Shown here: piece after piece, positions 33,280 through 51,507 of the stretch
Numbering within the stretch: the first letter of the stretch is position 1
How the letters are laid out: each line of letters starts with the position of its first letter
From: Candidatus Omnitrophota bacterium
GTDB taxonomy: Bacteria; Omnitrophota; Gorgyraeia; Gygaellales; Profunditerraquicolaceae
Length of the DNA: 64,000 bases
Assembly: GCA_003598135.1 (NCBI GenBank)
Contig: QZKA01000027.1
Location: 20,788-84,787 of the forward strand
Direction: 5' to 3'
The notes under the pieces: generated by a model
The model's input: the letters and a program-made list of their open reading frames with translations, nothing else
What the model was told of the DNA's origin: nothing
Database searches by the model: none
Program-made: the position numbers and the translations under genes

Positions 33280-34189
33280 GTGCATTGAGCTGTCGCAGAG
33301 CAATTTTGAAATCATCATCTTGCCCGACGAACCTTTCTCTTTCGATTTATTGCCAAGGCAGGCATCTGTTCCTATTGCGATTATCCCCACCGGAAGCGTG
33401 ACTCCCGCAAAAAAAAGAGATCTTGGTGTTACGCATGCAAAAGGCGAAATACTGGCATTTTTGGATGATGACGCCTATCCCGACAAAAACTGGCTGGTAA
33501 ACGCAGTGAGGCATTTTCAAGACTCCAAAGTTGCGGCTGTTGCCGGCCCAGCAGTGACACCGACAACTGATTCGATAAAACAGAGGGCAAGCGGGGAGGT
33601 GTATTCCTCGTTTCTGGTGAGCGGCAGTTACGCCTACCGTTATTTTCCGAATCGACAAAGAGAAGTTGACGACTATCCGAGCTGTAATTTCCTGGTCCGT
33701 AAATCCGTAATGGAAGAGATAGGGGGGTTCAATACCAATTTTTGGCCGGGTGAAGATACCAAGCTGTGCTTAGAGATAACGAAGAAACTGCATAAAAAAA
33801 TCACCTACGATCCGAAAGTCCTGGTCTTTCATCACCGCAGGCCCTTGTTTATTCCTCATTTAAAACAAATTGCAAGTTACGCATTGCATCGCGGCTACTT
33901 TGTAAAAAAGTACCCTGAAACTTCTTTAAGGGTTGCATATTTTATACCAAGCGTCTTTCTTGCTGCGCTTGTCATCGGCGCAGTATTTTCTCTATTCTTC
34001 CCAGCCCTAATCAACATTTATATTGCTGGCCTGCTATGTTACTTCGTACTTGTGCTCTTGGAAGCTATACGTAAAAACCCTCGTTTGATTTTTTATGTAT
34101 TCCTTGGGATAATCCTGACGCACCTGACATACGGAGCTTATTTTATAAAAGGCTTATTCCGAAAAAGGCTCCCGGAGGAGGAAGAATGA
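33215..34189 (+). CDS. GT2 glycosyltransferase with a C-terminal transmembrane anchor
   Basis: VSIIIAVKTW...LDDDAYPD (DxD) is the GT-A core. Three predicted C-terminal TM helices follow. It overlaps the upstream GT2 by 65 nt. Confidence 0.65.
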   Translation: MTVSIIIAVKTWQRNLEECVVRCIELSQSNFEIIILPDEPFSFDLLPRQASVPIAIIPTGSVTPAKKRDLGVTHAKGEILAFLDDDAYPDKNWLVNAVRHFQDSKVAAVAGPAVTPTTDSIKQRASGEVYSSFLVSGSYAYRYFPNRQREVDDYPSCNFLVRKSVMEEIGGFNTNFWPGEDTKLCLEITKKLHKKITYDPKVLVFHHRRPLFIPHLKQIASYALHRGYFVKKYPETSLRVAYFIPSVFLAALVIGAVFSLFFPALINIYIAGLLCYFVLVLLEAIRKNPRLIFYVFLGIILTHLTYGAYFIKGLFRKRLPEEEE

Positions 34190-35697
34190 AGGTCATTATC
34201 TCATACCCTCCGCTTGATGCAGCGAAAGGCTGTCCGACTCTCGGCCAGAACAGGCAGTTCCAATATTTTAAAGACCCTACCTTTATTTATCCGGTAGTAC
34301 CGGCACAGGCCGCCACATTACTTAAAAACTCAGGTTTCAAGGTAATCTGGAATGATTGCATTGCCTTGGGCTGGACATATGAGCAGTTTCTAGACTTCGT
34401 AAAAGAGGAAAAGCCTGACTTAATCGCCTTTGAGACCAAAACTCCCGTAATCAAGCAGCATTGGCAGATTATCAATAATATCAAACGACTTTCGTCAGCC
34501 GGCTGCCGTCCGTGGATAGTGCTCTTCGGCGACCACGTGACTGCGCTTCCCGAAGAGTCGTTTCAAAATTCAGAGGTTGATTATGTTCTTACCGGAGGCG
34601 ATTACGACTTTTTGCTGCTTAACCTGTGCAAATTTCTATCTTCTCAACTCAATACTCAATACTCAATACACAATACATCACTAGAGCCCGGAATCTATTA
34701 TCGCGAACATAAAGAAGTAAAAAACACCGGAAAATTCCAGCTCAATCATGACTTGAGCCAACTCCCTTTTATAGACCGTGATCTTACAGGCTGGGAAATG
34801 TACGCGTATCAAAACGGAAACTATAAACGGACTCCGGGGACTTATATTATGAGCGGCAGGGATTGCTGGTGGGCGCGCTGTTCTTTTTGCTCATGGCCGA
34901 CTCTCTATCCGTCGTTTAGGGTAAGAAATATAGATAATGTATTGGATGAAATAGGCATGCTTTTGGAGCGTTACAAGGTACGCGAAATAATGGATGATAC
35001 GGGATGTTTTCCTGCTGGGGATTGGCTTGGAGATTTTTGTTGCGGTTTGCTGAAACGGGGATACGAGAAGAAAATGTACATAGATTGCAATGCCCGGTTC
35101 GGCGCTCTGAGTAAGATTGATTTCAAGTTAATGAGAAAGGCAGGGTTTCGTTTGTTGCTATTTGGCCTTGAGTCCGCCAATCAAAAGACACTCGATAGAA
35201 TAAATAAGAACGTCAAGGTAGAAAGAATGATCGCCGATTGTCAGAATGCCTCCAGGGCAGGCCTCTTTCCACACATCACTATTATGTTTGGCTATCCCTG
35301 GGAATCGTTCGAAGATGCATCCCGAACGCTTCAATTGGGGTCATGGTTGTTGAAAAAGGGATATGCGTACACTATGCAGGCGACTATTGTCATACCATAT
35401 CCCGGGACTCCTTTATTTCAGGAGTGTAAAGAAGAGGGATGGCTTAAGACCGTTGATTGGGATAGGTATGATATGAAAGAAGCAGTGATGCGTATTCCTT
35501 TTGCCGAAGATGCGATGCGCCAGTTGGTACAAGGCATGTATAAAGTCTCTTTCGGCCCTGAGTTTATCGCAAGAAGGTTATTCTCAATCAGAGACACGGA
35601 TGACGTAGCGTATTTCCTCCGTGCTGCAAAAAAAGTGCTCGGGCATATTTTTGACTTTAGGAATAAAAAGTCATGTAATGGAAAAAAGCAAGTATAG
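34186..35697 (+). CDS. Cobalamin-binding (class B) radical SAM protein with a non-canonical Cx4Cx2C cluster motif
   Basis: Has an N-terminal B12-binding-like Rossmann domain and the motif CWWARCSFC in place of the usual CxxxCxxC. A downstream GLESANQKTLD motif is typical of radical SAM proteins. The start overlaps the upstream GT2 stop (ATGA). Confidence 0.7.
   Translation: MKVIISYPPLDAAKGCPTLGQNRQFQYFKDPTFIYPVVPAQAATLLKNSGFKVIWNDCIALGWTYEQFLDFVKEEKPDLIAFETKTPVIKQHWQIINNIKRLSSAGCRPWIVLFGDHVTALPEESFQNSEVDYVLTGGDYDFLLLNLCKFLSSQLNTQYSIHNTSLEPGIYYREHKEVKNTGKFQLNHDLSQLPFIDRDLTGWEMYAYQNGNYKRTPGTYIMSGRDCWWARCSFCSWPTLYPSFRVRNIDNVLDEIGMLLERYKVREIMDDTGCFPAGDWLGDFCCGLLKRGYEKKMYIDCNARFGALSKIDFKLMRKAGFRLLLFGLESANQKTLDRINKNVKVERMIADCQNASRAGLFPHITIMFGYPWESFEDASRTLQLGSWLLKKGYAYTMQATIVIPYPGTPLFQECKEEGWLKTVDWDRYDMKEAVMRIPFAEDAMRQLVQGMYKVSFGPEFIARRLFSIRDTDDVAYFLRAAKKVLGHIFDFRNKKSCNGKKQV
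34649..34676 (+). repeat. Imperfect tandem heptanucleotide repeat (TCAATAC x3 perfect plus one ACAATAC) inside the radical SAM CDS
   Basis: Read directly from the sequence: tcaatac tcaatac tcaatac acaatac. The encoded peptide is NTQYSIHNT. Confidence 0.5.
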
Positions 35698-36703
35698 CTA
35701 TTCAGTCGACGGACATAACCGGCTTCTGATAAAATCCCCAGGAAGCAAAAAAGCTGTTTCCCCCAACGGACAATTCCGGGTAACCAGAGATAACGGACTT
35801 TCGTTTTGGCTCAATGAGCCTCCTTCCTGGAGAAAAGAAAACAACCTTCCTAAGAAAATTACTTTTACCGGAACCTGGCAGCTGGATGAAAAGAACGGCC
35901 TGGAGTTCATTCTGGATAAAAGCAGATATCAAAATGCAGGAGAGAAGATTAGCTTTAAAGGCAAGCTCTTTGCGGTTGACGGAAATTCTGTCGCCTTTTC
36001 GATTTCCAGTTATAAAGAAGCGGCTTTGCGCTTGAGCCGTATCCAGACATTCAGGCTTGCCGGCTTATGGCAGGCAGATAAATATAACCGCCTCAATTTT
36101 ATTATCAGCCGGAAATTGCATTCTGATACGCTTACATTTGAGGGCGGCTGGCAGATCAACAAAAACCAGCAGATTGTGTATATATGCGAGAAGACAGGCC
36201 TCAAGAACAAAACCAGGATTTCTGAAGAAGTGGTATTGCGGGGTTATTGGCAGATAGTAAATAATAGAAGGTTAGTATATATACTTTCCCATAACGGCGA
36301 TTCCTGTCTTGAGTTCCGCGTCCAGCTCGAAACACCTAATCTCTACCCTCAAAAGGGAAAAATAAAGTTTCGTCTTGGAGTAGGCCTTAAAAAGAACAGG
36401 CCACCTGTGCCAAAAACTATTTGTCTTTACGGAGAGTGGAAGTTTTCCCACAAGTGGGGGTTAGTTTTTGCAATGGATTACGGGGCAGGAACAGTACACA
36501 ACATTGAGTTCGGTTTTACAGTTGCAGTACATAACGCAGACAGTATTTCGGTAAGTTTGACAAACAAACAAAACGAACCCCTTGGTATTACGGTTACTTT
36601 TACGCATCGTTTTTTAAAAGAACATGGCGCGCAAGGTTTTATCCGGTTAAAACCGGAAAGGAAAAGGTCGGGCCTGGAAGCAGGATTTACTTTTCCGTTT
36701 TAA
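35678..36703 (+). CDS. Uncharacterised cytoplasmic protein with five internal G-x-W-Q beta-hairpin-like repeats
   Basis: The repeats are TGTWQLDEKNGLEFIL, AGLWQADKYNRLNFII, EGGWQINKNQQIVYIC, RGYWQIVNNRRLVYIL and YGEWKFSHKWGLVFAM. It has no signal peptide. The start is taken at MEKSK (35678), overlapping the upstream gene by 20 nt. Confidence 0.5.
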   Translation: MEKSKYSYSVDGHNRLLIKSPGSKKAVSPNGQFRVTRDNGLSFWLNEPPSWRKENNLPKKITFTGTWQLDEKNGLEFILDKSRYQNAGEKISFKGKLFAVDGNSVAFSISSYKEAALRLSRIQTFRLAGLWQADKYNRLNFIISRKLHSDTLTFEGGWQINKNQQIVYICEKTGLKNKTRISEEVVLRGYWQIVNNRRLVYILSHNGDSCLEFRVQLETPNLYPQKGKIKFRLGVGLKKNRPPVPKTICLYGEWKFSHKWGLVFAMDYGAGTVHNIEFGFTVAVHNADSISVSLTNKQNEPLGITVTFTHRFLKEHGAQGFIRLKPERKRSGLEAGFTFPF

Positions 36704-38661: not shown

Positions 38662-39969
38662 ATGCCTGAACAGCCGGTTGTATTAATTAATCCCCCAAGC
38701 CCTTTTTTGATTAACCAAAAAAGCTTTTCTCCGCTTGGCATACTCTATCTTGCCGCCGAATTGGAAAAAAATAACCTACCCGTGCGGGTTGTCGATTTGG
38801 CGGACTCAGAGAATGATATGGAGGCGGCCTTACGTTCGTATTTGGATGCCGAGCTATTTGGTATCAGCGCAACAACCCCGCAATATCCTTATGCAAGAGC
38901 GATAAAGGATGCGATCAAGAGAGCGCACCCTGAGGCGAAAGTAGTATTGGGTGGCGTTCATGGAACAGACCTCACTGAAAAGTGTCTTAATGACGGGTTT
39001 GATATCGTGGTTAAGGGAGAAGGTGAGAAGGCAATAGTTAAGATCGTGCACGATTTCGCAACGCATTCCCTTGATTACAGGACTTTGCAATTGCCTTATG
39101 AAAAAGATATGGATTCTTTGCCTCTTCCTGCGCGGCACCTGATTCCCCTGAAGGAGTACGGTTATGATATTGATGGTGTACCTGGGGCAAGCGTTATTAC
39201 CAGCAGGGGCTGTCCGTATCATTGCGTTTTTTGTTCAAAAGGCGTCTGGGAACAGGGGGTAAGGCTTCATAGCGTTGAGTACGTCGTAAGGGAGCTGGTC
39301 TCAATCATACAAAACTATACGATTAGCCATTTTCTTTTCCTTGATGATGCCATTAATATTGATAGAAACAGGTTGGTGCGGTTATGCACTGCGATAAAAC
39401 CGCTTGGAATAAAATGGCGTTGCTATGCGCGGGCGGATTTTCACGCCAAGGGTATGCTTATTGCGATGAAGGAAGCAGGTTGCGTGGAGATAGGTGTGGG
39501 CATTGAGAGCGGTTCGCAGAAGATATTAGACATCGTAGGCAAAGGGAGCACTGTGGAAAAGAATACCAGTTTTGTTAAAGAATGCAAATCTGTTGGCGTG
39601 GCGGTGAATGCCTTTGTGATGATTGGGCTACCCGGTGAGACGCATGAAACGGTCGAAGCCACAAAAAAATGGATAGGAGATGCAATGCCGGATAAGTTTG
39701 GTTTTAATATTTTTATGCCTTATGCTGGCACTCCGGTCTGGCGCAACCTAGAAAAATATGATTTGTGTATCGCAGATATTCCCGAGGAACATAGCTGGGT
39801 AAAGGGCAGGCCAGGCCAGCACCATTGTTATGTCTCGACAAACGAGTTGAGCTCTAGTGAAATCTTAAGGTTGTTCAACGAGTTGTTTGATTATTACACA
39901 CAATTGTTACATTGGAGGCCCGGAGTAGGCAGGGTAAAGCAGACTGTCCCGGGTAACACAGTATGCTGA
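38662..39969 (+). CDS. Cobalamin-binding (class B) radical SAM protein, copy 2
   Basis: N-terminal B12-binding domain (VVLINPPSP...PLGILYLAAEL) and a canonical cluster motif, RGCPYHCVFCSK. Confidence 0.85.
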   Translation: MPEQPVVLINPPSPFLINQKSFSPLGILYLAAELEKNNLPVRVVDLADSENDMEAALRSYLDAELFGISATTPQYPYARAIKDAIKRAHPEAKVVLGGVHGTDLTEKCLNDGFDIVVKGEGEKAIVKIVHDFATHSLDYRTLQLPYEKDMDSLPLPARHLIPLKEYGYDIDGVPGASVITSRGCPYHCVFCSKGVWEQGVRLHSVEYVVRELVSIIQNYTISHFLFLDDAINIDRNRLVRLCTAIKPLGIKWRCYARADFHAKGMLIAMKEAGCVEIGVGIESGSQKILDIVGKGSTVEKNTSFVKECKSVGVAVNAFVMIGLPGETHETVEATKKWIGDAMPDKFGFNIFMPYAGTPVWRNLEKYDLCIADIPEEHSWVKGRPGQHHCYVSTNELSSSEILRLFNELFDYYTQLLHWRPGVGRVKQTVPGNTVC

Positions 39970-41483
39970 TAGGCGCGTTGTTGTTTTTTGTGGGGTATCT
40001 GTTTCAGTGCTGGCCGCGGTTTTTTAACCCTTATTTCGGGGTGGATGTATGGAGGAATCTTTCTATCGCCGATGAAATCAGAAAGTATAAGCGGCTGCCC
40101 AGGCGCAATCTTCCCAAATATATGTTAAAGGGGCCGTTTGACTATCCGCCGCTGCTCAATATATTTCTGTCGCTTTTTTCTAAAAAGTGGCTAGAAAAAT
40201 ACCAGGGTTTTATCGCGCCTCTTTTTGATGCAATCACCGGATTTATCCTTTTTTCATTCACCCTTTTCCTTACGAGAGAAGTCGCAGTTGCGCTCCTGGC
40301 GCAGCTTCTTTTTGTTACTAATCCCCTTGCAGCTATGGAAAACGCAAGCCTTACTGCGAGAAGCCTGGGTAATTTGACTTTTTCATTGACATTCCTTTTT
40401 ATTATTCTTTTCACCGTATTCCATTCATGGGCCTATTTTCTGTTGGCAATCATTTTTGGATTTTTGGTGATTTTTGCCCAGAAAATGGCATCCCAGGCCT
40501 TGATTATGATATCCGTTATCTTTATGCTCTTCAGAATGGATGTTTCCTATGTTCTTATCGTTTCTCTAAGTATACTGGTTGCACTCTTATTGGCAGGCGA
40601 TTTGTATGTCCGGATCGCCAGTGGACATCTTTCTGTGCTTAGATACTTTAGAAAGATTCTTGATAATCGCTATGCGCATCAGGTATCAGGCAATATTGCA
40701 TTAAAAGGCGGGAATGATTTCATCGATAAAGTTAAGTCTTATGTGAATAAACAACCGTTTTTGGCAATGCTGGCCAGTGCTCCTCTTGTCACCATGGGGT
40801 TGGTGCTGTCCTTGTGGGGACTAATTTTTATACCGAAGAGTTTTTCGATACCCCCCGAGCTTTATCTTTACCATATATTGTTTCAATTTTGTCTATGGCT
40901 AATAGTACTGTATTACTTTGGGATTCTTACCGCGCAAGTGCGCGCTATACAATTTTTAGGCGAGGGCATGAAATACTTGGTCTTTGCAAGTTTCCCTGCT
41001 TCTTTTATCGTGGCATACGTGTCGTTTTATGAAATCCGGTTAAACGCTAATTTCATTCCTTTAGTGTTTAGTTTGGTTGTTGTCGCAATGAGCGTAGCCC
41101 AAACGGTTTTCCTTCAGAAGAAAGGGATCGTCAACGACCGGCAGCGCACCCTTACCCCGGTTTTGCGGCAAGTTATGGATTTTTTACAGAATGAGCCTGG
41201 CGAAATCCGTCTGGCGACTATACCTTTTTCGCTCTCGGATATCATTGCCTATTTTACAAAGTGTAATGTTTTTTCATCCGATTCGGCGTTTGTCTTGGGC
41301 AATGATCCTGCGTATACTGACTTTTATCCGGTGTTAAAGAGGCCGCTTGAAGAAATCCTAAGCGTCCACAATATCAATTATTTGCTGATAGATAAGAACT
41401 ATGTGAACCCTGAGGCTTTGCAACTTGCGGCGGGCTCAAAGATTGTCCTTGAGAGAGAGAACCTGTGTCTGATAAAACGCTAA
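39963..41483 (+). CDS. Polytopic membrane protein (about 12 TM helices plus a C-terminal soluble domain of about 110 aa); possible GT-C-fold glycosyltransferase or polymerase/ligase-like protein
   Basis: The first extracytoplasmic loop reads GVDVWRNLSIADEIRKYKR, a DE..R(Y/K) motif reminiscent of the ArnT/PMT loop-1 DE(x)RY. There is no WWDYG motif. Topology only; no confident family assignment. Confidence 0.4.
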   Translation: MLIGALLFFVGYLFQCWPRFFNPYFGVDVWRNLSIADEIRKYKRLPRRNLPKYMLKGPFDYPPLLNIFLSLFSKKWLEKYQGFIAPLFDAITGFILFSFTLFLTREVAVALLAQLLFVTNPLAAMENASLTARSLGNLTFSLTFLFIILFTVFHSWAYFLLAIIFGFLVIFAQKMASQALIMISVIFMLFRMDVSYVLIVSLSILVALLLAGDLYVRIASGHLSVLRYFRKILDNRYAHQVSGNIALKGGNDFIDKVKSYVNKQPFLAMLASAPLVTMGLVLSLWGLIFIPKSFSIPPELYLYHILFQFCLWLIVLYYFGILTAQVRAIQFLGEGMKYLVFASFPASFIVAYVSFYEIRLNANFIPLVFSLVVVAMSVAQTVFLQKKGIVNDRQRTLTPVLRQVMDFLQNEPGEIRLATIPFSLSDIIAYFTKCNVFSSDSAFVLGNDPAYTDFYPVLKRPLEEILSVHNINYLLIDKNYVNPEALQLAAGSKIVLERENLCLIKR

Positions 41484-42724
41484 ATACCAATTTCAGAGTT
41501 TCGTTATTGCGGTGTCAGTCAGCAAAGCAGATACGGCAAAAGCTATATGCGGCCCTTGTTTCTTTTTCGGATATTTTTCCGACCTCTAAAGATGCGCATA
41601 TCCTAATCAAGCCGAATTTAAACAGCAACATGAACGCGTTAACAGGCAATACGACTGATTTGAGGCTACTGGATGCGCTTTTAAGCTACTTGCGCGATCA
41701 AGGGTATGGCGCTATTACGATAGGGGAAGGAACCAGTAGCGGCTTTCATAGAGAAAAAATCAATATATTCACTCGTCTTTGCATTGACAAGCTGGCTAGG
41801 CGCTTCAATGCGAAACTGCTCGATCTTAATTATGCCCCTTATGAGTATGTCGAGTTTGAGCACGGGGAAAAAGCAGCCGTGGCTCGAATATGCAAGGAAG
41901 CGGATTTTTTTATCAACCTTCCTAAATTAAAGACGCATTTTGAGGCCCTTCTTTCTGTGTGTTTGAAAAATATGATGGGTGCGTTAGTGGGCCTTCCCAA
42001 CAAACAAAAGACCCACCGCAGCCTTTTTAAAAATATTCTCAATCTCAATAAATTCGTAAAGCCGCATTTGCACATTATTGACGGCCTTATTGCCATGGAG
42101 GGCACAGGTCCTTCATCAGGGACTCCGATCAAGACTGATGTGGTGCTTATTGGCACCGATCCATATCTGTTGGATTTAGCGTGTGCTAAAATCGCAGGCT
42201 TTGATTATAAAGAGATTCCCTATTTGAGGTTGGCAGAAGAGCGAGGCATCATTAATCAAGATTATTTAAATTTTGTTGAAGCGTTTATCCCTAAAGAAGT
42301 TATCAGGATTTTCAAAAGGCCACACGTCAACTCGCTAGTCAGGTTCGTTAATCATCCTAATTGGCAGTATAGTTTTATCAAAATAAGGCTATCTCCTTTA
42401 GTGAATAAGCTGTTTTCTTTTAAAAGCTTTGGGAGGCTGCTTAATGCGGCAGGCCTACGCCAGGATGTTTTTGACAAGCAGGATTTGTGCCTTAAGGATA
42501 TCTATTTTGAGGCCTCGTTGTGCGATAACTGTAAAAAGTGCCAAGCCTATTGTCCGGTTGGTCTTGTTTTGCCTGAACAGTTACATCCGCTGCATGAACA
42601 GTGTATCGGCTGCCTTTATTGTTTTTTGGTCTGTCCTAAAAAGGCAATCAAAATAAAGGGAACCCTTGGGTTTTTTAAGGAGCAGTTAAAACGTTACGAC
42701 AACATTACGCGCTCAATAGCATAG
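41465..42724 (+). CDS. DUF362 domain protein fused to a C-terminal di-[4Fe-4S] ferredoxin domain
   Basis: DUF362 signatures (ILIKPNLN, KTH, NMMG, IIDGLIAMEGTGPSSGTP) plus two CxxCxxCxxxCP motifs (CDNCKKCQAYCP; CIGCLYCFLVCP). The start codon is uncertain; a GTG at 41465 overlaps the upstream gene by 19 nt. Confidence 0.7.
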   Translation: MSDKTLNTNFRVSLLRCQSAKQIRQKLYAALVSFSDIFPTSKDAHILIKPNLNSNMNALTGNTTDLRLLDALLSYLRDQGYGAITIGEGTSSGFHREKINIFTRLCIDKLARRFNAKLLDLNYAPYEYVEFEHGEKAAVARICKEADFFINLPKLKTHFEALLSVCLKNMMGALVGLPNKQKTHRSLFKNILNLNKFVKPHLHIIDGLIAMEGTGPSSGTPIKTDVVLIGTDPYLLDLACAKIAGFDYKEIPYLRLAEERGIINQDYLNFVEAFIPKEVIRIFKRPHVNSLVRFVNHPNWQYSFIKIRLSPLVNKLFSFKSFGRLLNAAGLRQDVFDKQDLCLKDIYFEASLCDNCKKCQAYCPVGLVLPEQLHPLHEQCIGCLYCFLVCPKKAIKIKGTLGFFKEQLKRYDNITRSIA

Positions 42725-42740: not shown

Positions 42741-43754
42741 ATGATTAGAATAGGCGTAATCGGTTGCGGATACTGGGGGCCTAACCTTATCAGGAATTTC
42801 AGTGAAGTCAGGGACGCGCACGTGATCGTCTGTGCAGACGTTAGGGAGGACCGCTTACAATTTGTAAAACAAAGATACCCGGCTGTTGAGGTTACGAAAG
42901 ATTACAAGAGGCTGTTGCAGCGTAAAGATATTGACGCGGTAAGCATTGCGACGCCAGCGTCAACCCATTTTTCTCTTGCGCGCGAGGCCCTTTCGTACAA
43001 TAAGCACGTGCTTATAGAAAAGCCTATGACTAAGACCTCAGGTCAAGCAGAAGAGCTTATACGAGCGGCAAAAAGCAAGAAAAGGGTTTTGATGGTCGGC
43101 CATACCTTTGAGTATGCGGGAGCAGTGCGCAAGATCAGAGAGCTCTTGAGCCGCGGGGAAATCGGCGATATCTTTTATTTTGATTCAACCAGGGCAAATT
43201 TGGGCCTTTTCCAGAAAGACGTCAATGTTATTTGGGACCTTGCTCCTCATGATCTCTCTATTATGCTCTACGCACTCAAACTGCATCCTGTTCGGGTACT
43301 GGCGGTAGGAAGCGCCTTTGTCAATTCTTCGATAGAGGATATTTGCTATATAACTTTGTTTTTTCCTAAGAAGATCATCGGGCATATACATATTAGTTGG
43401 CTGGCGCCTGTCAAATTTAGACGCACGGTTATTGCGGGGAGCAGGAAAATGATCGTATATGATGATGTCGAGAATATTGAAAAGATAAAGGTGTTTGAAC
43501 GCGGAGTCACGATTAAAGAAAACAACGGGCCCAAAGGGATACTGGAACGCCAGCTCTTTTACCAGATGGGAGACGTTTGGAGTCCCCGGATTGACACTCA
43601 GGAGCCCTTAAAAATCGAATGCGAGCATTTTATTGATTGCGTCAAAAAAGGCAAGACGCCTTCCAGTGATGGGAAAAATGGCCTTGAGATCGTGAGGATT
43701 CTGGAGGCGGTGGATGAATCGCTTAAGGAGGGCGGGAAAATAATAGATATTTAG
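42741..43754 (+). CDS. Gfo/Idh/MocA-family oxidoreductase, copy 2
   Basis: IRIGVIGCGYWGPNLIRNF and EKPMT motifs. About 45% identical by eye to copy 1. Confidence 0.8.
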   Translation: MIRIGVIGCGYWGPNLIRNFSEVRDAHVIVCADVREDRLQFVKQRYPAVEVTKDYKRLLQRKDIDAVSIATPASTHFSLAREALSYNKHVLIEKPMTKTSGQAEELIRAAKSKKRVLMVGHTFEYAGAVRKIRELLSRGEIGDIFYFDSTRANLGLFQKDVNVIWDLAPHDLSIMLYALKLHPVRVLAVGSAFVNSSIEDICYITLFFPKKIIGHIHISWLAPVKFRRTVIAGSRKMIVYDDVENIEKIKVFERGVTIKENNGPKGILERQLFYQMGDVWSPRIDTQEPLKIECEHFIDCVKKGKTPSSDGKNGLEIVRILEAVDESLKEGGKIIDI

Positions 43755-44483
43755 ATGGATGGACGGCTAAACCAGAAAGAACAAGTAGGTGTAAGTATTA
43801 TTCTGCCCGCTTTCAACGAGCGGAATAACCTTAAAACGGTGGTTGAATCCGTGATTGCCTCTGTTGCTTGCGCTGTGAATACGTACGAAGTTATCATAGT
43901 TGATGACGGAAGCAATGACGGGACCGGTGAAGTGGCGCGTTTATTGACAAGCCTGCCAAATGTAAAGTTTTTTCGGCACGAGGCCAATTTGGGGATGGGT
44001 GAGGCGGTCAAGACAGGCATCCGTCACGCTGTGTTTCCGATAGTAATGGATATCCCTTGCGATAATCAGTTTAATGCGAAAGATATTTTGTCATTTATCG
44101 AAAAAATTAAAGTCGCCGATATCGTGGTGGGGTATCGGATCAATAAAGCCCAGGGATTCAGGCGGAAATTTTTTAGCGGATTCAATATCCTGCTGCTTAA
44201 GGTACTTTTTGGGCTCAGGCTTAAGGACCCTACATGGGTGAAAATGTGCAGGAAACAAATTTTTGACAGCATCGGAATAGAATCTAAAGGATTTTTCTGG
44301 GAGACGGAAGTTCTGGTAAAGGCTAAGAATCAAGGGCTAAGAATCGAAGAAGTGCCCACGACCATGCAGCCAAGGCTTAGCGGCCAGTCAAAGGGAAATA
44401 GTTTTTTTAGGGCTGTTGATGTATTGTTCTCAATGTTACGCTTGAAAACTGCTTTTGTATTTTCAAATTTTCCGAAGAGATGA
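43755..44483 (+). CDS. GT2 glycosyltransferase, Dpm1-like (polyprenyl-phosphate sugar synthase type)
   Basis: VSIILPAFNERNNL...VIIVDDGSNDGT. Length 242 aa. The start abuts the Gfo-2 stop (TAGATG). Confidence 0.8.
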   Translation: MDGRLNQKEQVGVSIILPAFNERNNLKTVVESVIASVACAVNTYEVIIVDDGSNDGTGEVARLLTSLPNVKFFRHEANLGMGEAVKTGIRHAVFPIVMDIPCDNQFNAKDILSFIEKIKVADIVVGYRINKAQGFRRKFFSGFNILLLKVLFGLRLKDPTWVKMCRKQIFDSIGIESKGFFWETEVLVKAKNQGLRIEEVPTTMQPRLSGQSKGNSFFRAVDVLFSMLRLKTAFVFSNFPKR

Positions 44484-45871
44484 AAGTTGCGCTAATAAAC
44501 CCTTCAGTACAAAAGGTAATCGAACGTCGCTATGACAGGCCGGTATTTCCACACTTGGGGCTTGGCTATATTGCCTCTTATTTGCGTAAGCGTGACGTTG
44601 ATTGCCATGTGGTAGACGCAAAGATGGAAGGCTTAAGTCTTCCTGGGCTTTTGGGGCGCTTGAAAGAAATCAGGCCGCATTTAGTCGGCTTGACATCTAT
44701 GACGCACGAAATAGGCAGTGTGCATTGCGTTGCCAAGCGGATAAGGGAATTATTTCCAGATGCCAAGATTGCTTTGGGTGGAGTGCATGCAACTTTCTTA
44801 CCCGCAGAAACTTTGCGTGATTATCCAGAATTTGACTTTGTAGTTTCCGGGGAAGGTGAAGAGACTTTTTTTGATCTTTATAACACGTTATCCTGCGGTA
44901 AACCGAACGTAAGTACTGTTGCAGGCTTAAGTTTTCTTGAGGGTGGTACTATCAAAACGAATCCTTCCCGGGAGAAGATCTACAATCTTGATGCTCTGCC
45001 TTTTCCTGACTGGGAAAATTTTCCTGTGGCAAGGGAATATCCGGTGATGACAAGTAGGGGATGTCCGTTTGAGTGTATTTTTTGCGCCAACCCTAACGGA
45101 AGGGTCTTGCGCGCGCGTTCCGCTGAAAGTGTAGTAAGTGAGTTCGAATGGGTAGTGAATAGGTTTCATCCCCAAAGGATTGTTTTCTGGGATGAAGGCT
45201 TGACGTTTGACCGAAGGAGGGCAGAAGCAATTTTTGATGCACTGATTAAGAAAGGTTTGCAGAAGAAGGTAAAATGGTATGCTCAGACCCATGTCTTGAG
45301 TGTCGATTACCTTCTTTTTAAAAAGATGAAAGAGGCAGGTTGTGTTTCTATCGGGTTAGGGATTGAGTCTGGCAATGAAAAAATCCTATCCCGCCTTCAG
45401 AAGAAGACAAATATTGCAAAGATTAAAATGGCCGTCAAAGATGCCAAAAGAGCGGGCTTGCCGGTTGAGGGGTATTTTATTTTTGGCCATCCCTATGAAA
45501 CGAAAGAAACCGCCATTGATACCATTCGGTTTGCAGTAAAGCTTAACCCCGAATATCCTGTATTCGGTATTATGGTTCCTTATCCAGGCACCGAGGTCCT
45601 GCGTATGGCTCAGAAGGGAGAAGGGGATTACCGTTTGCTTTCAAAAGATTGGTCTGACTATAATAAACAACTGGGCCATGCACTTGAGCTTGCCCATTTG
45701 AATCGCCGCCAGCTTGAGCTATTTCAGCTTAAGGGATATATATATGTGTTTATCTGTAACTTAAGACTAATAAGCCTAGTGAGGTTCTTTTTTAAGTACA
45801 GAAAAGAAGCGGTTGCCTTTATGAAAAAAATGCTGTTACGAAAGGAAAATCATGGACCTGAGGCAATTTAA
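44480..45871 (+). CDS. Cobalamin-binding (class B) radical SAM protein, copy 3
   Basis: B12-binding N-terminus (KVALINPS...LGLGYIASYL) and TSRGCPFECIFCANP. Its start overlaps the upstream GT2 stop. Confidence 0.85.
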   Translation: MKVALINPSVQKVIERRYDRPVFPHLGLGYIASYLRKRDVDCHVVDAKMEGLSLPGLLGRLKEIRPHLVGLTSMTHEIGSVHCVAKRIRELFPDAKIALGGVHATFLPAETLRDYPEFDFVVSGEGEETFFDLYNTLSCGKPNVSTVAGLSFLEGGTIKTNPSREKIYNLDALPFPDWENFPVAREYPVMTSRGCPFECIFCANPNGRVLRARSAESVVSEFEWVVNRFHPQRIVFWDEGLTFDRRRAEAIFDALIKKGLQKKVKWYAQTHVLSVDYLLFKKMKEAGCVSIGLGIESGNEKILSRLQKKTNIAKIKMAVKDAKRAGLPVEGYFIFGHPYETKETAIDTIRFAVKLNPEYPVFGIMVPYPGTEVLRMAQKGEGDYRLLSKDWSDYNKQLGHALELAHLNRRQLELFQLKGYIYVFICNLRLISLVRFFFKYRKEAVAFMKKMLLRKENHGPEAI

Positions 45872-46907
45872 CCCCTTAAAGGTATTAAACCATTGGGAGA
45901 CGCTTAAGGTGGTTATCGAAGGGAAGAACCCTTATCCGGTCTCCTGCGAAATTGACCCGAGCAATATCTGTAACCATAATTGTATCTGGTGTATTAATGA
46001 CCGTTTTAGAAAGTCGAACAAAGCAATGATTCCAAAAGAGTTAATGTGTAGGATCATTAAGGAAATTGCTGCGTGTGGCGTAAAGTCCATTGCGTTTACG
46101 GGCGGAGGAGAGCCGTTAATGAACCCGGCAAGCATAGAGGCTATTCAGTTGACGAGACGAAAGCGGATGGATGTCGGAATTGTAACTAATGGCGAGCTTC
46201 TCGATCCTGAGAAATGCCGGGTTATTGTGGATAATTGTAGTTATGTTCGTATAAGCCTTGATGCCGGTACCCGCAAGACGCATACCGTTGTCCACGCGCC
46301 CCTTAACAAGCGACAGGATGTGTATAGAAAAATCCTGGACAATATAGGTTTACTCGTAAAATACCGGCAGAAAAATAAAAGGAATATTACGATAGGGATT
46401 GGATATTTGGTAAATTTAGATAATTATCACGAAATAGCCAGGGCTGCGAAATTGGTACGGGATTCAGGTGTTGATTATATGCAGATCCGTCCTGCATTCA
46501 TGCCTGGAAAGCAGCTTTCCGAAAGAATCCGTTTTGAGGCAGAGCGTTTGATCCAAGAAACTCTTGCGTTATCCGATGGGCGGTTTTATGTGTTTCCGAT
46601 TCTGCACCGTTTCGATGAGGTAATAAACCTTGACCGTGCATACGACCGTTGCTTGGGCCACGGCCTCGTGGGAGTAGTTGCGGCAAACGCAAAGATGTAT
46701 ATCTGCTGTCAGCTAAGGGGGGAGGAGGCATTTTGTATCGGCGACCTGCGCCGGGCATCATTTTCTCAAATATGGAAAGGCAAAAGGAGGAAGTCAGTAA
46801 TTAAGTCGATAAACCTCGACCGTTGCCCTCCTTGTCGTTACAACAAATATAACGAAATCTTGGATTATCTTGCGAGTGAAAATAAGACACACAAAAATTT
46901 TCTATAA
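45852..46907 (+). CDS. Radical SAM protein without a B12 domain, with a C-terminal Cys cluster (SPASM/twitch-like); paralog a
   Basis: CNHNCIWC is the CxxxCxxC cluster motif, near the N-terminus. C-terminal cysteines sit at CPPCRYNKYNE. The N-terminus MDLRQFN is shared with paralog a' at 47860. Confidence 0.75.
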   Translation: MDLRQFNPLKVLNHWETLKVVIEGKNPYPVSCEIDPSNICNHNCIWCINDRFRKSNKAMIPKELMCRIIKEIAACGVKSIAFTGGGEPLMNPASIEAIQLTRRKRMDVGIVTNGELLDPEKCRVIVDNCSYVRISLDAGTRKTHTVVHAPLNKRQDVYRKILDNIGLLVKYRQKNKRNITIGIGYLVNLDNYHEIARAAKLVRDSGVDYMQIRPAFMPGKQLSERIRFEAERLIQETLALSDGRFYVFPILHRFDEVINLDRAYDRCLGHGLVGVVAANAKMYICCQLRGEEAFCIGDLRRASFSQIWKGKRRKSVIKSINLDRCPPCRYNKYNEILDYLASENKTHKNFL

Positions 46908-46910: not shown

Positions 46911-47879
46911 ATGGAACTAAAAGGAAAAAACATTCTAGTTACCGGAGGTACGGGTTTCCTGGGCAGCTACATTGTCCAGCGTTGCCTTGATGAGAAGGCG
47001 CGGGTGCGGGTTTTTTCTACGGGAGCGCAGCTAGACAATATAAGGCATCTTTTAAAGAACCCAAGGCTGCATTTTATCGCATCTGATATGAGCGATGCTG
47101 CTTCTTTGGGGAAGGCGGTGAGAGGGGTTGACCTGGTGTTTCATTTCGCCTCTTTTACCAAGACCCAAGAATCGTATCAATACCCCATGAAGGATTTCCA
47201 GACCAATGTGGTGGGCTCGATGCTTCTTCTGGAGGCGATGAGGGCTCACGGAGTGAAACAAATTGTTTTTGCTTCTACGGGAAAGGTGTATGGCCAGCCC
47301 CGCTATTCCCCGGTGGACGAAAATCATCCTATCAGCCCCCAGGAACCTTATAGCGTAGGTAAATATTCGATAGAAAGGTATATCTTGCTTTACCACAAGC
47401 TATACCAGATGAATTACCTCATACTAAGAATATTCGGCATTTATGGCCCCCGGCAACTCCCTAAACCCGGTTCTCTGGTGGGTGTGATCAGCATCCTCGT
47501 TGAAAATATATTAAAATACGGGAAAGTTGACATTTATGGCAACGGCTCGCTTAAAAGGGATTTTCTTTATATCGATGATTTTGTGGAATTTTGCTGCGCT
47601 CTCATAAAAAGAAACCGCTGGCAGCATATACTCAACGTTGCTTCCGGAAAGACTGTCGACCTAAACGGGGTCTTAAAAATCATCTCCAAGGAAATTTACC
47701 CCGATACATTTAAGGTTAATTATAAGCCTTCCTTAAAGAGCGACATAGACCTTTGTCCGGATGTTTCTTTATTAAAGAAAATTTCTTGCTACAAACCTAA
47801 GGTAACCCTACGGAGCGGGATCTCTCGCTATATAGCCTGGTATAAGGACATAAAAAGACATGGATCTGCAGCAGTTTAA
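46911..47879 (+). CDS. NAD-dependent epimerase/dehydratase (extended SDR)
   Basis: ILVTGGTGFLGSYIV plus an SDR Tyr (YSVGK). Confidence 0.75.
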   Translation: MELKGKNILVTGGTGFLGSYIVQRCLDEKARVRVFSTGAQLDNIRHLLKNPRLHFIASDMSDAASLGKAVRGVDLVFHFASFTKTQESYQYPMKDFQTNVVGSMLLLEAMRAHGVKQIVFASTGKVYGQPRYSPVDENHPISPQEPYSVGKYSIERYILLYHKLYQMNYLILRIFGIYGPRQLPKPGSLVGVISILVENILKYGKVDIYGNGSLKRDFLYIDDFVEFCCALIKRNRWQHILNVASGKTVDLNGVLKIISKEIYPDTFKVNYKPSLKSDIDLCPDVSLLKKISCYKPKVTLRSGISRYIAWYKDIKRHGSAAV

Positions 47880-48915
47880 TAGCTACAAAATATTAACACA
47901 CCTGGGAACGATTCGTAAATTCTCAAGGGGCAATAATCCCTTTCCTGTTTCCTGCGAAATTGACCCGAGCAATCTATGCAACCATGATTGCCTCTGGTGT
48001 TATTTCGTTGACAGCCGTAAAGGCACCAGGACAAACCTGAAAAAAGAAACCCTGCTTAGTTTAATTGATGACCTGGCTAAGGGAGGCACTAAGTCTGTTA
48101 CGCTTACCGGGGGAGGCGAGCCCCTGGTCAATCCCGCCACGATGGAAGCCATTGCCAGGACGCATGCAAAGGGAATGCGCGTCGGCCTGGTAACCAATGG
48201 CGGGCTCTTGGATGAAGGAAAAAACAAGGTTATTGTTTCTTGCTGTGATTTTGTCAGGATAAGCCTTGATGCGGTTGACCGGAAATCGCATAGTAAGTTG
48301 CATAAGCCGCATAACCCTACGGCGGATAATTTCGAGATGGTCCTTAAGAATCTTTCTTCTTTGGTGGCACTGCGCAGGAAGTTACGAAAAAAAATAACCA
48401 TAGGAATCGGTTTTCTCGTACATAGCGATAACTATAGAAAACTTTCATCTTTAGCCTCATGGCTTAAAAAAGCGGGCGCGGATTACCTGCAGATTAGGCC
48501 AATCTTTATACCGGGAAATGAGGCGATTACCAGGGTTTGGGTAACTGCCTATAAAGAGATCCGCAAGGCAATTGCCTTGACAGATCGTTCATTTTATGTG
48601 TTTCCCATAAAGCAGCGCTACGAAGAAATTATGAGCCGGCATAAAAATTATAGTTGTTGTAATATTCACAATTTGTTATCGGTTGTTGGTGCTGATGCAA
48701 ACGTATATATGTGTAGCCTATTCCGTGGTGATGGCCGGTTCAGTTTTGGCAGCCTTTATGAGAATTCGTTTGCTGAAATCTGGAACGGCAAAAGAAGGAA
48801 AGAGGTACTAAGGTCATTTGATATCAGAAAGTGTCCGGCGTGTCGTTATAATACGTATAACGAGATCCTCCAGTATGTATTGAACCCTAAGAAGCCGCAT
48901 GCAGAATTTTTATGA
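47860..48915 (+). CDS. Radical SAM protein, paralog a' of 45852..46907
   Basis: CNHDCLWC, with C-terminal CPACRYNTYNE. A 24-nt stretch (tcctgcgaaattgacccgagcaat) is identical in the two paralog genes. Confidence 0.75.
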   Translation: MDLQQFNSYKILTHLGTIRKFSRGNNPFPVSCEIDPSNLCNHDCLWCYFVDSRKGTRTNLKKETLLSLIDDLAKGGTKSVTLTGGGEPLVNPATMEAIARTHAKGMRVGLVTNGGLLDEGKNKVIVSCCDFVRISLDAVDRKSHSKLHKPHNPTADNFEMVLKNLSSLVALRRKLRKKITIGIGFLVHSDNYRKLSSLASWLKKAGADYLQIRPIFIPGNEAITRVWVTAYKEIRKAIALTDRSFYVFPIKQRYEEIMSRHKNYSCCNIHNLLSVVGADANVYMCSLFRGDGRFSFGSLYENSFAEIWNGKRRKEVLRSFDIRKCPACRYNTYNEILQYVLNPKKPHAEFL

Positions 48916-50069
48916 TGAAAATAGCCGATATAAAGGCGGTCGTAGTAACCCATGTGACTATTTCAGAGCCTTCTTTGGCTGAAGTATACGGCCAGTGTCA
49001 CGCAATAGCCGACTTTTTAAAAGAAAATGCGCAAGAGCTACTTTTTATCCGTCATCCGCTTAACGGAAAATTTTGCTCCCGGGCAGAACGATTCTCAAAA
49101 GATACCGTTGTCCCAACTGATACGGGCAAGAATACTGCTTCGGGGATAATGAGATACATCGCCGATGTTTTGACTACCCTGAAGGTAACATACTCGTCAA
49201 GCAAAAGCTGGGATGTGTTCATCGGCGTAAATAGCCTTAATGCATTCAGCGGAATTCTGCTTAAGCGGATGAAGAAGGTAAAGCGGGTTATTTTCTATAC
49301 TGCAGACTACGTTCCGTTACGTTTTAAGAACAGGATTATGAATTCAACATACCATTGGTTTGATAGGTTTTGCATAAGGAACGCTGATTTTGTCTGGAAT
49401 ATTTCTCAGGCCCAGGTTGCGATAAGGCGTACACAAGGCGTTTCAGATGCGCACAATATTCATGTGCCCCACGGCATAGATACGGAAAAGATAAAGCCCC
49501 AGCCAGTTGAGAATATAGACAGGTTCAGCTTTGTTATCGCAGCCAACCTTACCCGGGCTTTCAATCATACGCTTATTCTGGATGCATTTAGCGAGACGGT
49601 AAAACGGATACCTCACGCCAGGTTATTTATTGTCGGTACAGGTGAGTCAGAACAAGAGATTCAACATTACATCAATCTAAAAAATATAGAAAATTCAGTT
49701 TTTATGGAGGGTTGGATGCCTCATGAGAAATTACTCGCTTTTCTATCGCGCTGCGGGGTAGGGATAGCCATTTATACTTCTGAGTGCAGTTGGACTAATT
49801 TCTCCGATTCTTTTAAAACCAAGGAATACCTCGGTTGCGGCTGCCCTGTTATTATTTCCGGCGCCCAAGGCGCCATTAGTGAGGCGAAAGAAAGCAATGC
49901 CCTTATCGTTGTAGAGCAGACAAAAGACTCCCTCTCGCAGGCAATGTTGAAAATGCTGCAAGACGAAACGTTCTATATGCAATGCCGTAAGAACGCAATT
50001 AATTTCATGAAAAACCTTGATTGGCGCGCGATTTACGGGCGCAGCCTCAAGTTTCTTAATTCAAACTAA
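48912..50069 (+). CDS. GT4-family (GT-B fold) glycosyltransferase
   Basis: C-terminal E..K motif region (EGWMPHEKLLAFLSRCGVGIAIYTS...KTKEYLGCGCPVIIS), typical of retaining GT4 enzymes. Confidence 0.6.
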   Translation: MMKIADIKAVVVTHVTISEPSLAEVYGQCHAIADFLKENAQELLFIRHPLNGKFCSRAERFSKDTVVPTDTGKNTASGIMRYIADVLTTLKVTYSSSKSWDVFIGVNSLNAFSGILLKRMKKVKRVIFYTADYVPLRFKNRIMNSTYHWFDRFCIRNADFVWNISQAQVAIRRTQGVSDAHNIHVPHGIDTEKIKPQPVENIDRFSFVIAANLTRAFNHTLILDAFSETVKRIPHARLFIVGTGESEQEIQHYINLKNIENSVFMEGWMPHEKLLAFLSRCGVGIAIYTSECSWTNFSDSFKTKEYLGCGCPVIISGAQGAISEAKESNALIVVEQTKDSLSQAMLKMLQDETFYMQCRKNAINFMKNLDWRAIYGRSLKFLNSN

Positions 50070-50073
50070 GGAT

Positions 50074-51507
50074 ATGGACACACGCAGGGTAGTTTTATTC
50101 AATGCGCCGGTCTGCCAAAGCAAGAAAGACGAGATAGAGGAGGGTAATGAACACTTGCGTATCGGCATCGCTTCAATAGCGGCATATTTGAAAAGCAAAG
50201 GTGTTTCAGTCTTGATGATAGATACCGAAGATTTACCCAGCATTAAAAAGATGCTACGGGTCTTCTCTCCTCAATTCGCCGGACTTCCGGCATATACCTG
50301 CGAGGTGTATGATACCGCTAGAACGGCTAAGATGGTGAAAGAGATAGTACCAGAGTCCAGAATTGTAGTAGGAGGCCCGCATCCTAGTGCGCTTCCGGAA
50401 GAGACGCTGCGCGAATTTCCCGTGTTTGATCTGGCCGTTATCGGTGAAGGGGAAAAGACTTTTTATGAAATCGTGCGAGGGGATACGCGGATTGAGGAGC
50501 TCAAAGGGGTTGCATATGCCAGAAACGGTTCAATTTATGTTAATCCTAAAGCGGGTCCTTTAGAGTCTCTGGACGCGCTTCCGGATCCGGCCTGGGACCT
50601 CTATAACCTGGTTCGTTATAAGAAAATTTTTTGGGGTAAAACACGCAATGCGTTTAAAATTGTAAAAGATAATGATATGCTGTTTCTGCCAATTGAGAGT
50701 ATGCGAGGGTGTCCTTTTGAATGCCTCTTTTGTTTCCGTTTAAATGACAGGAGCGTACGCTATAAGTCACCTTTGCGGGTAGCAGAGGAGCTAGAGCGTG
50801 GCATCGAACAGTTTAATGCAGGCAGGTTTTATTTCGTTGATCCTACTTTCGGTATCAATAAGCAATACACACTTGAATTGTGTGATTTGATAGTAAAGAA
50901 AAGGCTGCAGGAAAGAATCGGCTGGGAAGTAAGCTCAAGGGTAGATGTGATGGATGAGGAATTATTGAAGAGCATGAAAAAGGCAGGGTGCGATACTATC
51001 GGTTTCGGGATAGAATCAGGCAACGATGACGTCCTTGAACATACAGGAAAGCATACGAATAAAAAGATGATCCTTGATGTCATAAGACTTTGCAATAAGA
51101 TCGGGATAACCGTAGGCAGCACTTTTATTTTCGGCCATCCGCATGAGTCCAAGCAAAGAATAAATGAAACCATCAAATTTGCAAGGAGCCTGCCTATTGC
51201 TACCGCAAGTTTCGCTATTATGGTCCCTTTCCCAGGCACAAAGATATATGAAATGGCCAAACAGGACCTCGGAGGATTCAGGATTCTGACAAAACAGTGG
51301 GATGCCTACGGCAAACAGGTAGGGATGGCTATGGAATTAGAAAATGTTCCCCAAAAGGAATTATTAAAGTTGCAAGCCAAGGCATACATTTATTTTTATT
51401 GCAGTTTTCGCAGGATTGCATTTCTTTTGCGTCATCTTACGTTTGCAAGGGCGCTGTATGCTTTTAAAAGATCCTTGTTTTTATTACGCGTTGATAAAAG
51501 ATCTTAA
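50074..51507 (+). CDS. Cobalamin-binding (class B) radical SAM protein, copy 4
   Basis: B12-binding N-terminus (RVVLFNAP...IGIASIAAYL) and MRGCPFECLFCFR. The start at MDTRR has an AAGGA RBS. Confidence 0.85.
   Translation: MDTRRVVLFNAPVCQSKKDEIEEGNEHLRIGIASIAAYLKSKGVSVLMIDTEDLPSIKKMLRVFSPQFAGLPAYTCEVYDTARTAKMVKEIVPESRIVVGGPHPSALPEETLREFPVFDLAVIGEGEKTFYEIVRGDTRIEELKGVAYARNGSIYVNPKAGPLESLDALPDPAWDLYNLVRYKKIFWGKTRNAFKIVKDNDMLFLPIESMRGCPFECLFCFRLNDRSVRYKSPLRVAEELERGIEQFNAGRFYFVDPTFGINKQYTLELCDLIVKKRLQERIGWEVSSRVDVMDEELLKSMKKAGCDTIGFGIESGNDDVLEHTGKHTNKKMILDVIRLCNKIGITVGSTFIFGHPHESKQRINETIKFARSLPIATASFAIMVPFPGTKIYEMAKQDLGGFRILTKQWDAYGKQVGMAMELENVPQKELLKLQAKAYIYFYCSFRRIAFLLRHLTFARALYAFKRSLFLLRVDKRS

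Follow-up and report, generated by a model that had tools for sequence, protein, structure and literature searches.

A DUF362-ferredoxin fusion coupled to cobalamin radical SAM genes in surface-glycan loci is a candidate redox partner with a LarA-like domain

We analysed a 64,000-nt stretch of Candidatus Omnitrophota contig QZKA01000027.1, referred to below as the window, with attention to the gene at 41465..42724 on the + strand. This gene encodes a domain of unknown function, DUF362, fused to a ferredoxin domain, and we call its product DUF362-Fd. It belongs to an orthologous subfamily that is a fixed part of lipopolysaccharide (LPS) core or surface-glycan loci in at least seven phylum-level lineages, and in most of the genomes it is coupled to a gene for a radical S-adenosylmethionine enzyme (rSAM). 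We propose, with a probability that we place at roughly 0.45, that DUF362-Fd is a dedicated redox partner of cobalamin rSAMs of the HpnJ/BchE type that take part in the remodelling of surface sugars. According to this proposal, the DUF362 pocket would be the place where a bound cofactor or a small donor or acceptor undergoes oxidation or reduction. The two clusters of the ferredoxin domain would relay single electrons between that pocket and the [4Fe-4S] cluster of the rSAM, its cobalamin or both. The electron transfer and its direction, the physical contact with the rSAM and the substrate are inferred, and the probable carrier of the remodelled sugar is lipid A/core or polyprenyl phosphate.

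The gene begins with GTG and its open reading frame (ORF) specifies 419 residues, with 100% identity to the NCBI entry of a Candidatus Omnitrophota metagenome-assembled genome. Pfam places the core of DUF362 (PF04015) at residues 46-242 (41600..42190), with E=4.6e-44 and a score of 151.3 bits against a cutoff of 24, and the match covers the whole domain (1-200 of 200). At the C-terminus, residues 346-399 (42500..42661) form a ferredoxin domain recognised by Fer4, Fer4_7, Fer4_10 and Fer4_9; the Fer4 and dicluster families extend over residues 345-399, with scores of 34 bits for Fer4 (cutoff 21.1), 31.7 for Fer4_7 (cutoff 27) and 29 for Fer4_10 (cutoff 25.5). The domain carries two motifs of the form CxxCxxCxxxCP, CDNCKKCQAYCP at residues 353-364 (42521-42556) and CIGCLYCFLVCP at residues 380-391 (42602-42637), and each of the eight motif cysteines is either invariant or present in 68 of 69 orthologues. 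By sequence this is a clostridial-type 2x[4Fe-4S] ferredoxin that is predicted to bind both clusters. The fusion, which had been described in a first-pass annotation made from the letters of the window, is therefore real, and since more than 100 full-length homologues with at least 50% identity share the DUF362 plus ferredoxin architecture, it did not arise by chance. DUF362-Fd is a cytoplasmic redox protein composed of two modules. The same annotation was right that the gene overlaps the preceding membrane-protein gene by 19 nt: the TAA stop of that 506-residue ORF lies at 41481-41483, a purine-rich GAGAGAGAG is found directly 5' of the GTG, and a 62%-identical Omnitrophota locus also has a 19-nt overlap.

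Evidence for the proposal comes from gene linkage. We took as the subfamily the orthologous DUF362-Fd proteins of about 413-419 residues and assembled 80 loci, with one genome per species. ORFs were labelled by BLAST against a Pfam-verified reference set and were scored independently with hidden Markov models (HMMs) derived from B12-type and SPASM-type rSAMs. At least one rSAM was present within 8 kb at 70 of the 80 loci, and 137 rSAM ORFs were found in 1,026 kb, or 1.34 per 10 kb, with a mean of 2.5 at each fully flanked locus. An rSAM gene stands directly 3' of DUF362-Fd in 49 of the 74 loci that could be scored, and in 61 of 80 the first labelled gene after DUF362-Fd is an rSAM gene; the median intergenic gap between the two is -0.5 nt. 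The linkage was seen in Omnitrophota, Nitrospirota, Thermodesulfobacteriota, Planctomycetota/Brocadiaceae, Schekmanbacteria, Nitrospinia and Anaerolineales. When the contexts of homologues with 50-62% identity were inspected in public assemblies (Omnitrophota, Nitrospirota, Schekmanbacteria, Deltaproteobacteria and metagenome bins), rSAM genes were present in 8 of 8.

The control set consisted of 80 loci, taken from metagenomes, that encode members of other DUF362(-ferredoxin) subfamilies, typically about 375-395 residues long and with two Cys motifs. The same HMM detector found only 6 rSAM ORFs in 639 kb around these genes (0.09 per 10 kb), one of them adjacent, so that the density around the subfamily is 14-fold that around other DUF362 genes. 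The recurrent neighbours of the control genes are a mixed set (ABC transporters, SDR enzymes, aminotransferases and AOR fragments) that shows no common theme and contains no lar genes. The absence of enrichment in the control implies that the rSAM link is specific to the subfamily and is not a general property of DUF362-ferredoxin fusions. The enrichment near rSAM genes that the first-pass annotation had wished to see surveyed therefore holds for the 413-419-residue subfamily, at 70 of 80 loci, and fails for the other subfamilies, where rSAM genes were found at 6 of 80.

In the dominant arrangement, genes for an LpxL-like acyltransferase and a heptosyltransferase III-like glycosyltransferase of family 9 (GT9) precede DUF362-Fd, which is followed by a B12-rSAM of about 488 residues and a family 2 glycosyltransferase (GT2). 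Upstream there is often a Wzy_C gene together with more B12 and SPASM rSAMs. This order was found in Nitrospirota, including magnetotactic members, in Thermodesulfobacteriota, including cable bacteria, in Planctomycetota/Brocadiaceae and in Schekmanbacteria. A larger cluster also occurs in Nitrospirota and Thermodesulfobacteriota (loci L018, L020, L025, L046, L047, L051, L060, L065, L080 and L085), in which three consecutive B12-rSAMs of about 510, 498 and 424 residues, LpxL-like acyltransferases and a SPASM rSAM lie directly upstream of GT9, DUF362-Fd, the HpnJ-like rSAM and GT2; from this composition, lipid A or core would seem to be modified extensively by radical chemistry.

The coupled rSAM of the dominant arrangement is a full-length paralogue of HpnJ, which scores 442 bits against TIGR03471 (E=1.9e-132) and thus falls below the equivalog cutoff of 577.6. 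HpnJ and BchE are cobalamin rSAMs that are non-methylating. HpnJ itself, a putative cobalamin rSAM that has never been reconstituted, contracts the glucosamine ring of hopanoids to a cyclitol ether (PMC13459092). In a second arrangement (loci L004, L010, L029 and L055), the adjacent rSAM is a more distant relative of HpnJ, whose orthologue in the window is encoded at 34186-35697 and which we label rSAM503. This arrangement is expanded in Omnitrophota loci, including the window; the orthologues in L004, L010 and L001 are 50-67% identical to the window protein, and in L004 and L055 the rSAM503 gene is immediately upstream of DUF362-Fd. The L001 orthologue (2319-5288), from another Omnitrophota metagenome-assembled genome, is 989 residues long and contains an inserted intein with Intein_splicing and LAGLIDADG endonuclease domains. 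At some loci (L001, L043, L049 and L070), DUF362-Fd lies next to SPASM rSAMs that lack B12 domains. Thus, across lineages in which DUF362-Fd remains 50-55% identical, the adjacent rSAM may be the HpnJ-like enzyme of about 488 residues, rSAM503 or a SPASM protein. A constant DUF362-Fd beside a changing rSAM is more easily reconciled with an accessory function than with one tied to a particular substrate.

There is a precedent for such a role. The turnover of BchE is best when the donors are multi-cluster ferredoxins, which keep the cobalamin from being over-reduced, and two-cluster ferredoxins are the best physiological reductants found for this enzyme (PMC13598231). Like FdxA and the other clostridial-type and [Fe7S8] ferredoxins that serve BchE, DUF362-Fd is a two-cluster module tied to cobalamin rSAMs, the tie in our case being genetic. 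It differs in that the ferredoxin is fused to an enzyme-like domain of 340 residues and is encoded beside the rSAM. The stop/start coupling to the rSAM gene, the conservation of DUF362-Fd across changing rSAM partners and the BchE precedent are the three observations on which we base the redox-partner proposal.

The DUF362 domain is itself informative. An AlphaFold model of the protein (mean predicted local distance difference test, pLDDT, 90.5; predicted template-modelling score, pTM, 0.91) contains an alpha/beta domain similar to that of the lactate racemase LarA at about residues 10-290, followed by a helical linker and then the ferredoxin domain. A Foldseek search of the PDB with this model returned only LarA-superfamily proteins (DUF2088; PDB 5HUQ, 6D6Z and 9EIA) as significant matches; the best 18 all belong to this superfamily, with probabilities of 0.99-1.00, E values from 2e-5 to 8e-3 and 184-284 aligned columns. 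The TM-scores of these matches are low (0.28-0.36) because coverage is partial. On the evidence of the model, then, the DUF362 domain has the fold of the cofactor-binding N-domain of LarA, in keeping with the assignment of DUF362 and DUF2088 to a single Pfam clan, CL0471 (PMC11770544). The likeness is limited to that domain, as DUF362-Fd has no Pfam match to DUF2088 and the C-terminal domain of LarA is missing. Moreover, LarA enzymes are redox-neutral racemases without Fe-S clusters, whereas DUF362-Fd has the appended 2x[4Fe-4S] module.

In LarA, Lys184 tethers the nickel-pincer cofactor through a thioamide, His200 ligates its nickel, and these residues together with His174 make up a triad that provides one catalytic base. 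Searches of PDB sequences with the whole protein or with a full-length profile gave matches to the ferredoxin domain only. We therefore built a profile of DUF362 alone from 26 diverse sequences and checked the LarA sequence against 5HUQ. Against all PDB sequences, this profile gave one significant match, the malate racemase Mar2 (E=0.0078). In the HMMER alignment, His158 (at the end of KTH) takes the position of LarA His174, Lys168 that of the Lys184 tether and His184 that of the nickel ligand His200, with Lys168 and His184 opposite the Mar2 residues in GGHK and EKNH. The motif, His158-x9-Lys168-x15-His184 (41936..42016, + strand), has the same spacing in LarA and DUF362-Fd. Alignment of DUF362 profiles with a single LarA sequence by hhalign, at probabilities of 1.4%, 5.5% and 12.7% that permit its use for register only, agrees with HMMER on His158 and Lys168, and in one run puts His184 on another LarA histidine; for His184 the register was taken from HMMER and the gapless alignment. 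The triad positions of LarA are thus kept in DUF362, where they may bind a cofactor.

These residues are conserved well beyond the subfamily. The DUF362 family comprises about 6,360 clusters at 50% identity, as judged by a search of 1.84 billion representatives. Among 127 diverse members with approximately 30-52% identity, His158 is present in 118, Lys168 in 124 and His184 in 122, and all three are kept in 69 of 69 orthologues. Lys49, Asn51, Lys156, Lys180, Asp206, Glu212 and Asp237 are about equally conserved among the 127. Other LarA features are less evident. The position of the catalytic His108 is occupied by His95 (41747-41749) in the window protein and its closest relatives, hhalign pairing SGFHR with TGFHR at low probability; among 69 orthologues 64 carry Tyr at this point, and many DUF362 proteins show a gap. 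LarA homologues with only one catalytic histidine do exist (PMC12611868). No equivalent of the phosphate binder Arg75 was found: the loop that corresponds to SSDHTR reads KPNLNSN and lacks an Arg where the two align. Some very large proteins also contain a DUF362 domain without Fe-S motifs: P0231 (2949 residues) and P0245 (1171 residues) join it to SAM-methyltransferase domains, with additional N6-DNA-methylase/Eco57I-like modules in P0231, and in P0205 (1371 residues) DUF362 is the sole domain seen.

Several observations weigh against the proposal that DUF362-Fd serves as a redox partner. Among orthologues, the DUF362 domain is 59% identical, compared with 44% for the ferredoxin domain and 42% for the linker, and the polar pocket is kept family-wide, including in DUF362 proteins that have no Fe-S domain or rSAM neighbours. 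Together these facts indicate that the DUF362 domain possesses a ligand or catalytic site and carries out chemistry of its own, and the LarA fold with its conserved pocket likewise makes it more than a carrier for a ferredoxin. The only fusions that we found are to glycosyltransferases and none is to an rSAM: in P0122 (702 residues) and P0156 (681 residues), a protein resembling the subfamily is joined to a GT2 and to a WecG/TagA/CpsF (GT26) domain, respectively. Both Cys motifs of P0122 are degenerate. We have given these metagenomic fusions little weight because neither was met more than once and both contigs are short. In addition, at 5 of the 48 loci with complete flanks the gene is an orphan in unrelated surroundings, the HpnJ-type matches in Pfam include no DUF362, and the hopanoid HpnI/J/K pathway has been described without a DUF362 component (PMC13459092). 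Finally, in the window itself DUF362-Fd adjoins genes for a predicted membrane glycosyltransferase and a GFO oxidoreductase and not an rSAM, and BLASTP detected no close orthologue of the canonical partner rSAM within the 64 kb, its nearest relative there (44480-45871) being 32-33% identical.

These considerations give substance to a second explanation, which we regard as the main rival though less likely, namely that DUF362-Fd is itself an enzyme of the glycan pathway. Its pocket would oxidise, reduce or epimerise a hydroxyl-bearing carbon of a sugar, an ulosonic acid or a polyprenyl-phosphate sugar, the clusters would link this site to the ferredoxin pool of the cell, and the rSAM and GT2 would simply carry out neighbouring steps. 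The first-pass annotation had also allowed that the protein might perform its own redox step, and that alternative is still alive. It would account for the LarA-like fold with a His/Lys/His pocket common to the family, for the greater constraint on the DUF362 domain than on any other part of the protein, for the occurrence of DUF362 without Fe-S domains and for the two glycosyltransferase fusions. DUF362 has also been found fused to CBM9 and dockerin modules in lignocellulose-degrading consortia (PMC5742341). In the window DUF362-Fd is flanked by a predicted GT-C glycosyltransferase and has a GT2 within two genes, and in L004 the order is DUF362-Fd, GT2 and PMT. Against it stand the stop/start coupling specifically to the rSAM gene in most genomes and the constancy of DUF362-Fd where the type of the adjacent rSAM varies; the fusions, as noted, are singletons, and no substrate can be named.

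The resemblance to LarA raises a more specific idea about the pocket. Perhaps DUF362 is a scaffold sister to that of LarA, in which a nickel-pincer cofactor, or a related pyridinium one, is tethered by Lys, ligated by His and wired to Fe-S clusters; in the subfamily the two [4Fe-4S] clusters would then turn the hydride chemistry of the cofactor into one-electron chemistry. We consider this improbable. Use of the nickel-pincer cofactor by DUF362-Fd is possible and is unsupported, since no larE is found nearby: tblastn (E<=1e-3) detected no LarE homologue in 2.36 Mb made up of the window and 175 loci (about 160 DUF362 genes), and none of the larB, larC and larE Pfam families matched among 59 long + strand ORFs scanned in the window. 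The only lar-related match in the 2.36 Mb of DUF362-flanking DNA is a LarA-like (DUF2088) fragment at about 9250-10236 (-) of locus L152, where a DUF362-ferredoxin gene outside our subfamily lies some 5 kb away. An instructive comparison is NphT, a nickel-pincer enzyme of the aldo-keto reductase (AKR) fold that acts on sugars and was recognised by the criterion that we apply to DUF362, namely conservation of a Lys tether and a His nickel ligand in a scaffold other than that of LarA (PMC13524815). Its fold, a TIM barrel, is unrelated, and it was discovered through adjacency to larB/C/E, which DUF362 genes do not show. The 2026 screen for nickel-pincer enzymes by lar-gene adjacency (Nat Chem) reports AKR-fold enzymes and does not mention DUF362 (PMC13524815). 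If the idea were true, DUF362-Fd would be the first nickel-pincer enzyme in net redox catalysis, converting hydride to electrons without a flavin so as to supply the cobalamin rSAMs of anaerobes or to draw electrons from them.

Nor is it likely that DUF362-Fd is a general electron donor that reduces every rSAM of its cluster. The first-pass annotation had envisaged a supplier for all nine rSAMs in the window, and these nine were all verified with Pfam, five as B12-type and four as SPASM-type. DUF362-Fd is the sole ferredoxin module found among the window ORFs that were scanned, a point that counts for the redox-partner proposal as well, and the recurrence of rSAM-rich loci around its orthologues also favours a general donor. 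The survey argues otherwise. Elsewhere DUF362-Fd is paired with one HpnJ-like B12-rSAM, or with the second HpnJ-related type, and a GT2; many loci have no rSAM other than the one adjacent to it, and where there are several, DUF362-Fd stays beside the HpnJ-like enzyme. A plain ferredoxin would, furthermore, have no need of a conserved, enzyme-like domain of 340 residues.

We attach still less credence to a service function analogous to that of RamA and the RACE proteins, in which DUF362-Fd would act on the cobalamin of the partner rSAM, by reductive reactivation or loading (cob(II) to cob(I)), or would bring another cofactor of that enzyme to maturity. The linkage is specifically to cobalamin-type rSAMs, and RamA too has a 2x[4Fe-4S] domain. 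But Pfam and NCBIfam detect no ATPase/ASKHA domain and no corrinoid-binding motif in DUF362-Fd, and the adjacent SPASM rSAMs of L001, L043, L049 and L070 have no B12 domain. Membership in the RamA/RACE activators was rejected because the ATPase domain is missing; neither an ASKHA-type ATPase nor a COG3894 domain was detected with Pfam or NCBIfam. Least probable of all is that the gene merely resides in rSAM-rich glycan islands, as the five orphan loci might be taken to indicate, for this would leave unexplained the 14-fold excess in rSAM density and the preservation of order, strand and overlap across phyla.

The membrane protein encoded directly upstream (39963..41483, + strand, 506 residues) deserves comment. 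It has no Pfam, NCBIfam or PDB-sequence match and just 52 homologues among 5.8 billion proteins. Its AlphaFold2 model (pLDDT 93.1) matches STT3, AglB, PglB, DPY19 and ArnT in Foldseek with a probability of 1.0, and it is confidently predicted from this model to be a glycosyltransferase of the GT-C fold. Asp28 and Trp30, near the N-terminus, are invariant. The gene is syntenic in L001, L012-L014 and L070, and we considered whether it is a general partner of DUF362. This was rejected, as distant homologues occur in glycan clusters that have no DUF362 or rSAM genes, and the association is for the same reason lineage-specific. Together with the GT2 encoded at 43755..44483, which is of the polyprenyl-phosphate-sugar synthase type (Pfam Glycos_transf_2; best NCBIfam matches PpgS, AglJ and ArnC-like, all below cutoff), it suggests a branch that acts on a polyprenyl-phosphate sugar. 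The pairing of such a synthase with a GT-C protein is shared with periplasmic glycosylation of the ArnC/ArnT type, by fold and family only, and Arn and related systems have no rSAM or Fe-S partner, unlike the DUF362-Fd locus.

A parallel for the partner rSAM and its GT2 is the hopanoid HpnI-HpnK-HpnJ module, in which HpnJ and the GT2 HpnI both act on a hexosamine linked to a lipid (PMC13459092). The DUF362-Fd loci differ from it in having an LPS core context (GT9, LpxL-like, Wzy_C), with no hopanoid genes and no HpnK deacetylase seen.

In the window, the nine rSAM genes belong to a cluster for surface glycans that takes up about 40 kb (23.6-64 kb) and also encodes nucleotide-sugar enzymes, a flippase, GT2 and GT4 enzymes, three GFO oxidoreductases and an AsnB-like enzyme. 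The Pfam scan covered 59 of the 60 long + strand ORFs in the window; apart from DUF362-Fd, no ferredoxin- or flavodoxin-family match was found in these 59, a further 14 shorter + strand ORFs (60-149 residues, not within a longer ORF) being outside the scan. All the genes that follow are on the + strand. The B12-type rSAMs include rSAM503 at 34186-35697 (131 bits against the NCBIfam HpnJ model; B12-binding match of 28 bits, below the Pfam cutoff of 32.1) and a 435-residue protein 5' of the GT-C gene, at 38662-39969, with Pfam B12-binding and Radical_SAM matches and HpnJ, below cutoff, as its best NCBIfam match. The others are a BchE/HpnJ-like enzyme at 44480-45871 (Pfam, NCBIfam and BLASTP against the partner rSAMs) and two assigned with Pfam, at 50017-51507 and 60589-62061. 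The SPASM-type rSAMs, also from Pfam, are at 45852-46907, 47860-48915, 59602-60585 and 62045-63196. Immediately downstream of DUF362-Fd, at 42741..43754, Pfam and NCBIfam identify a GFO/IDH/MocA oxidoreductase that resembles UDP-GlcNAc 3-dehydrogenase. Two ORFs of the glycan cluster, at 35621-36703 (360 residues) and 56265-57794 (509 residues), have no Pfam match; the former also has no NCBIfam match and is syntenic in the Omnitrophota loci L012 and L013.

The genes before the glycan cluster are pilus and housekeeping genes. Among them are a block for the assembly of type IV pili (PilM, PilO and a secretin) at 5384-11182, unrelated to the glycan cluster, and a pilin-like ORF with an N-terminal methylation motif at 2531-3031. 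All long gene-like ORFs of the window are on the + strand, GC skew is positive in every 2-kb interval and the cumulative skew climbs monotonically, which places the window within one replichore with a strong gene-strand bias.

In the literature that we searched there was no functional study of DUF362, and the LarA field has used the family as an outgroup only (PMC11770544). The statement of the first-pass annotation that DUF362 has no assigned function is accurate for that literature, but as a relative of LarA in fold, with a conserved pocket, the domain is not featureless. Both the module of GT9, DUF362-Fd, HpnJ-like rSAM and GT2 and the retention of the LarA cofactor triad in DUF362 appear to be previously undescribed. 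A large domain of unknown function thereby gains its first reproducible context, together with a pocket that can be mutated at Lys168, His184 and His158. Reconstitution of cobalamin rSAMs is difficult, since in most cases one does not know which reductant serves them physiologically, and the conserved, coupled Fe-S protein is an immediate candidate for co-expression with them. The findings also bear on the use of the nickel-pincer cofactor beyond LarA and the AKR-fold NphT. The presence of this LPS module in Nitrospirota, in Thermodesulfobacteriota, including cable bacteria, in anammox Planctomycetota and in Omnitrophota suggests a hitherto undescribed, oxygen-independent step in the remodelling of their envelope sugars.

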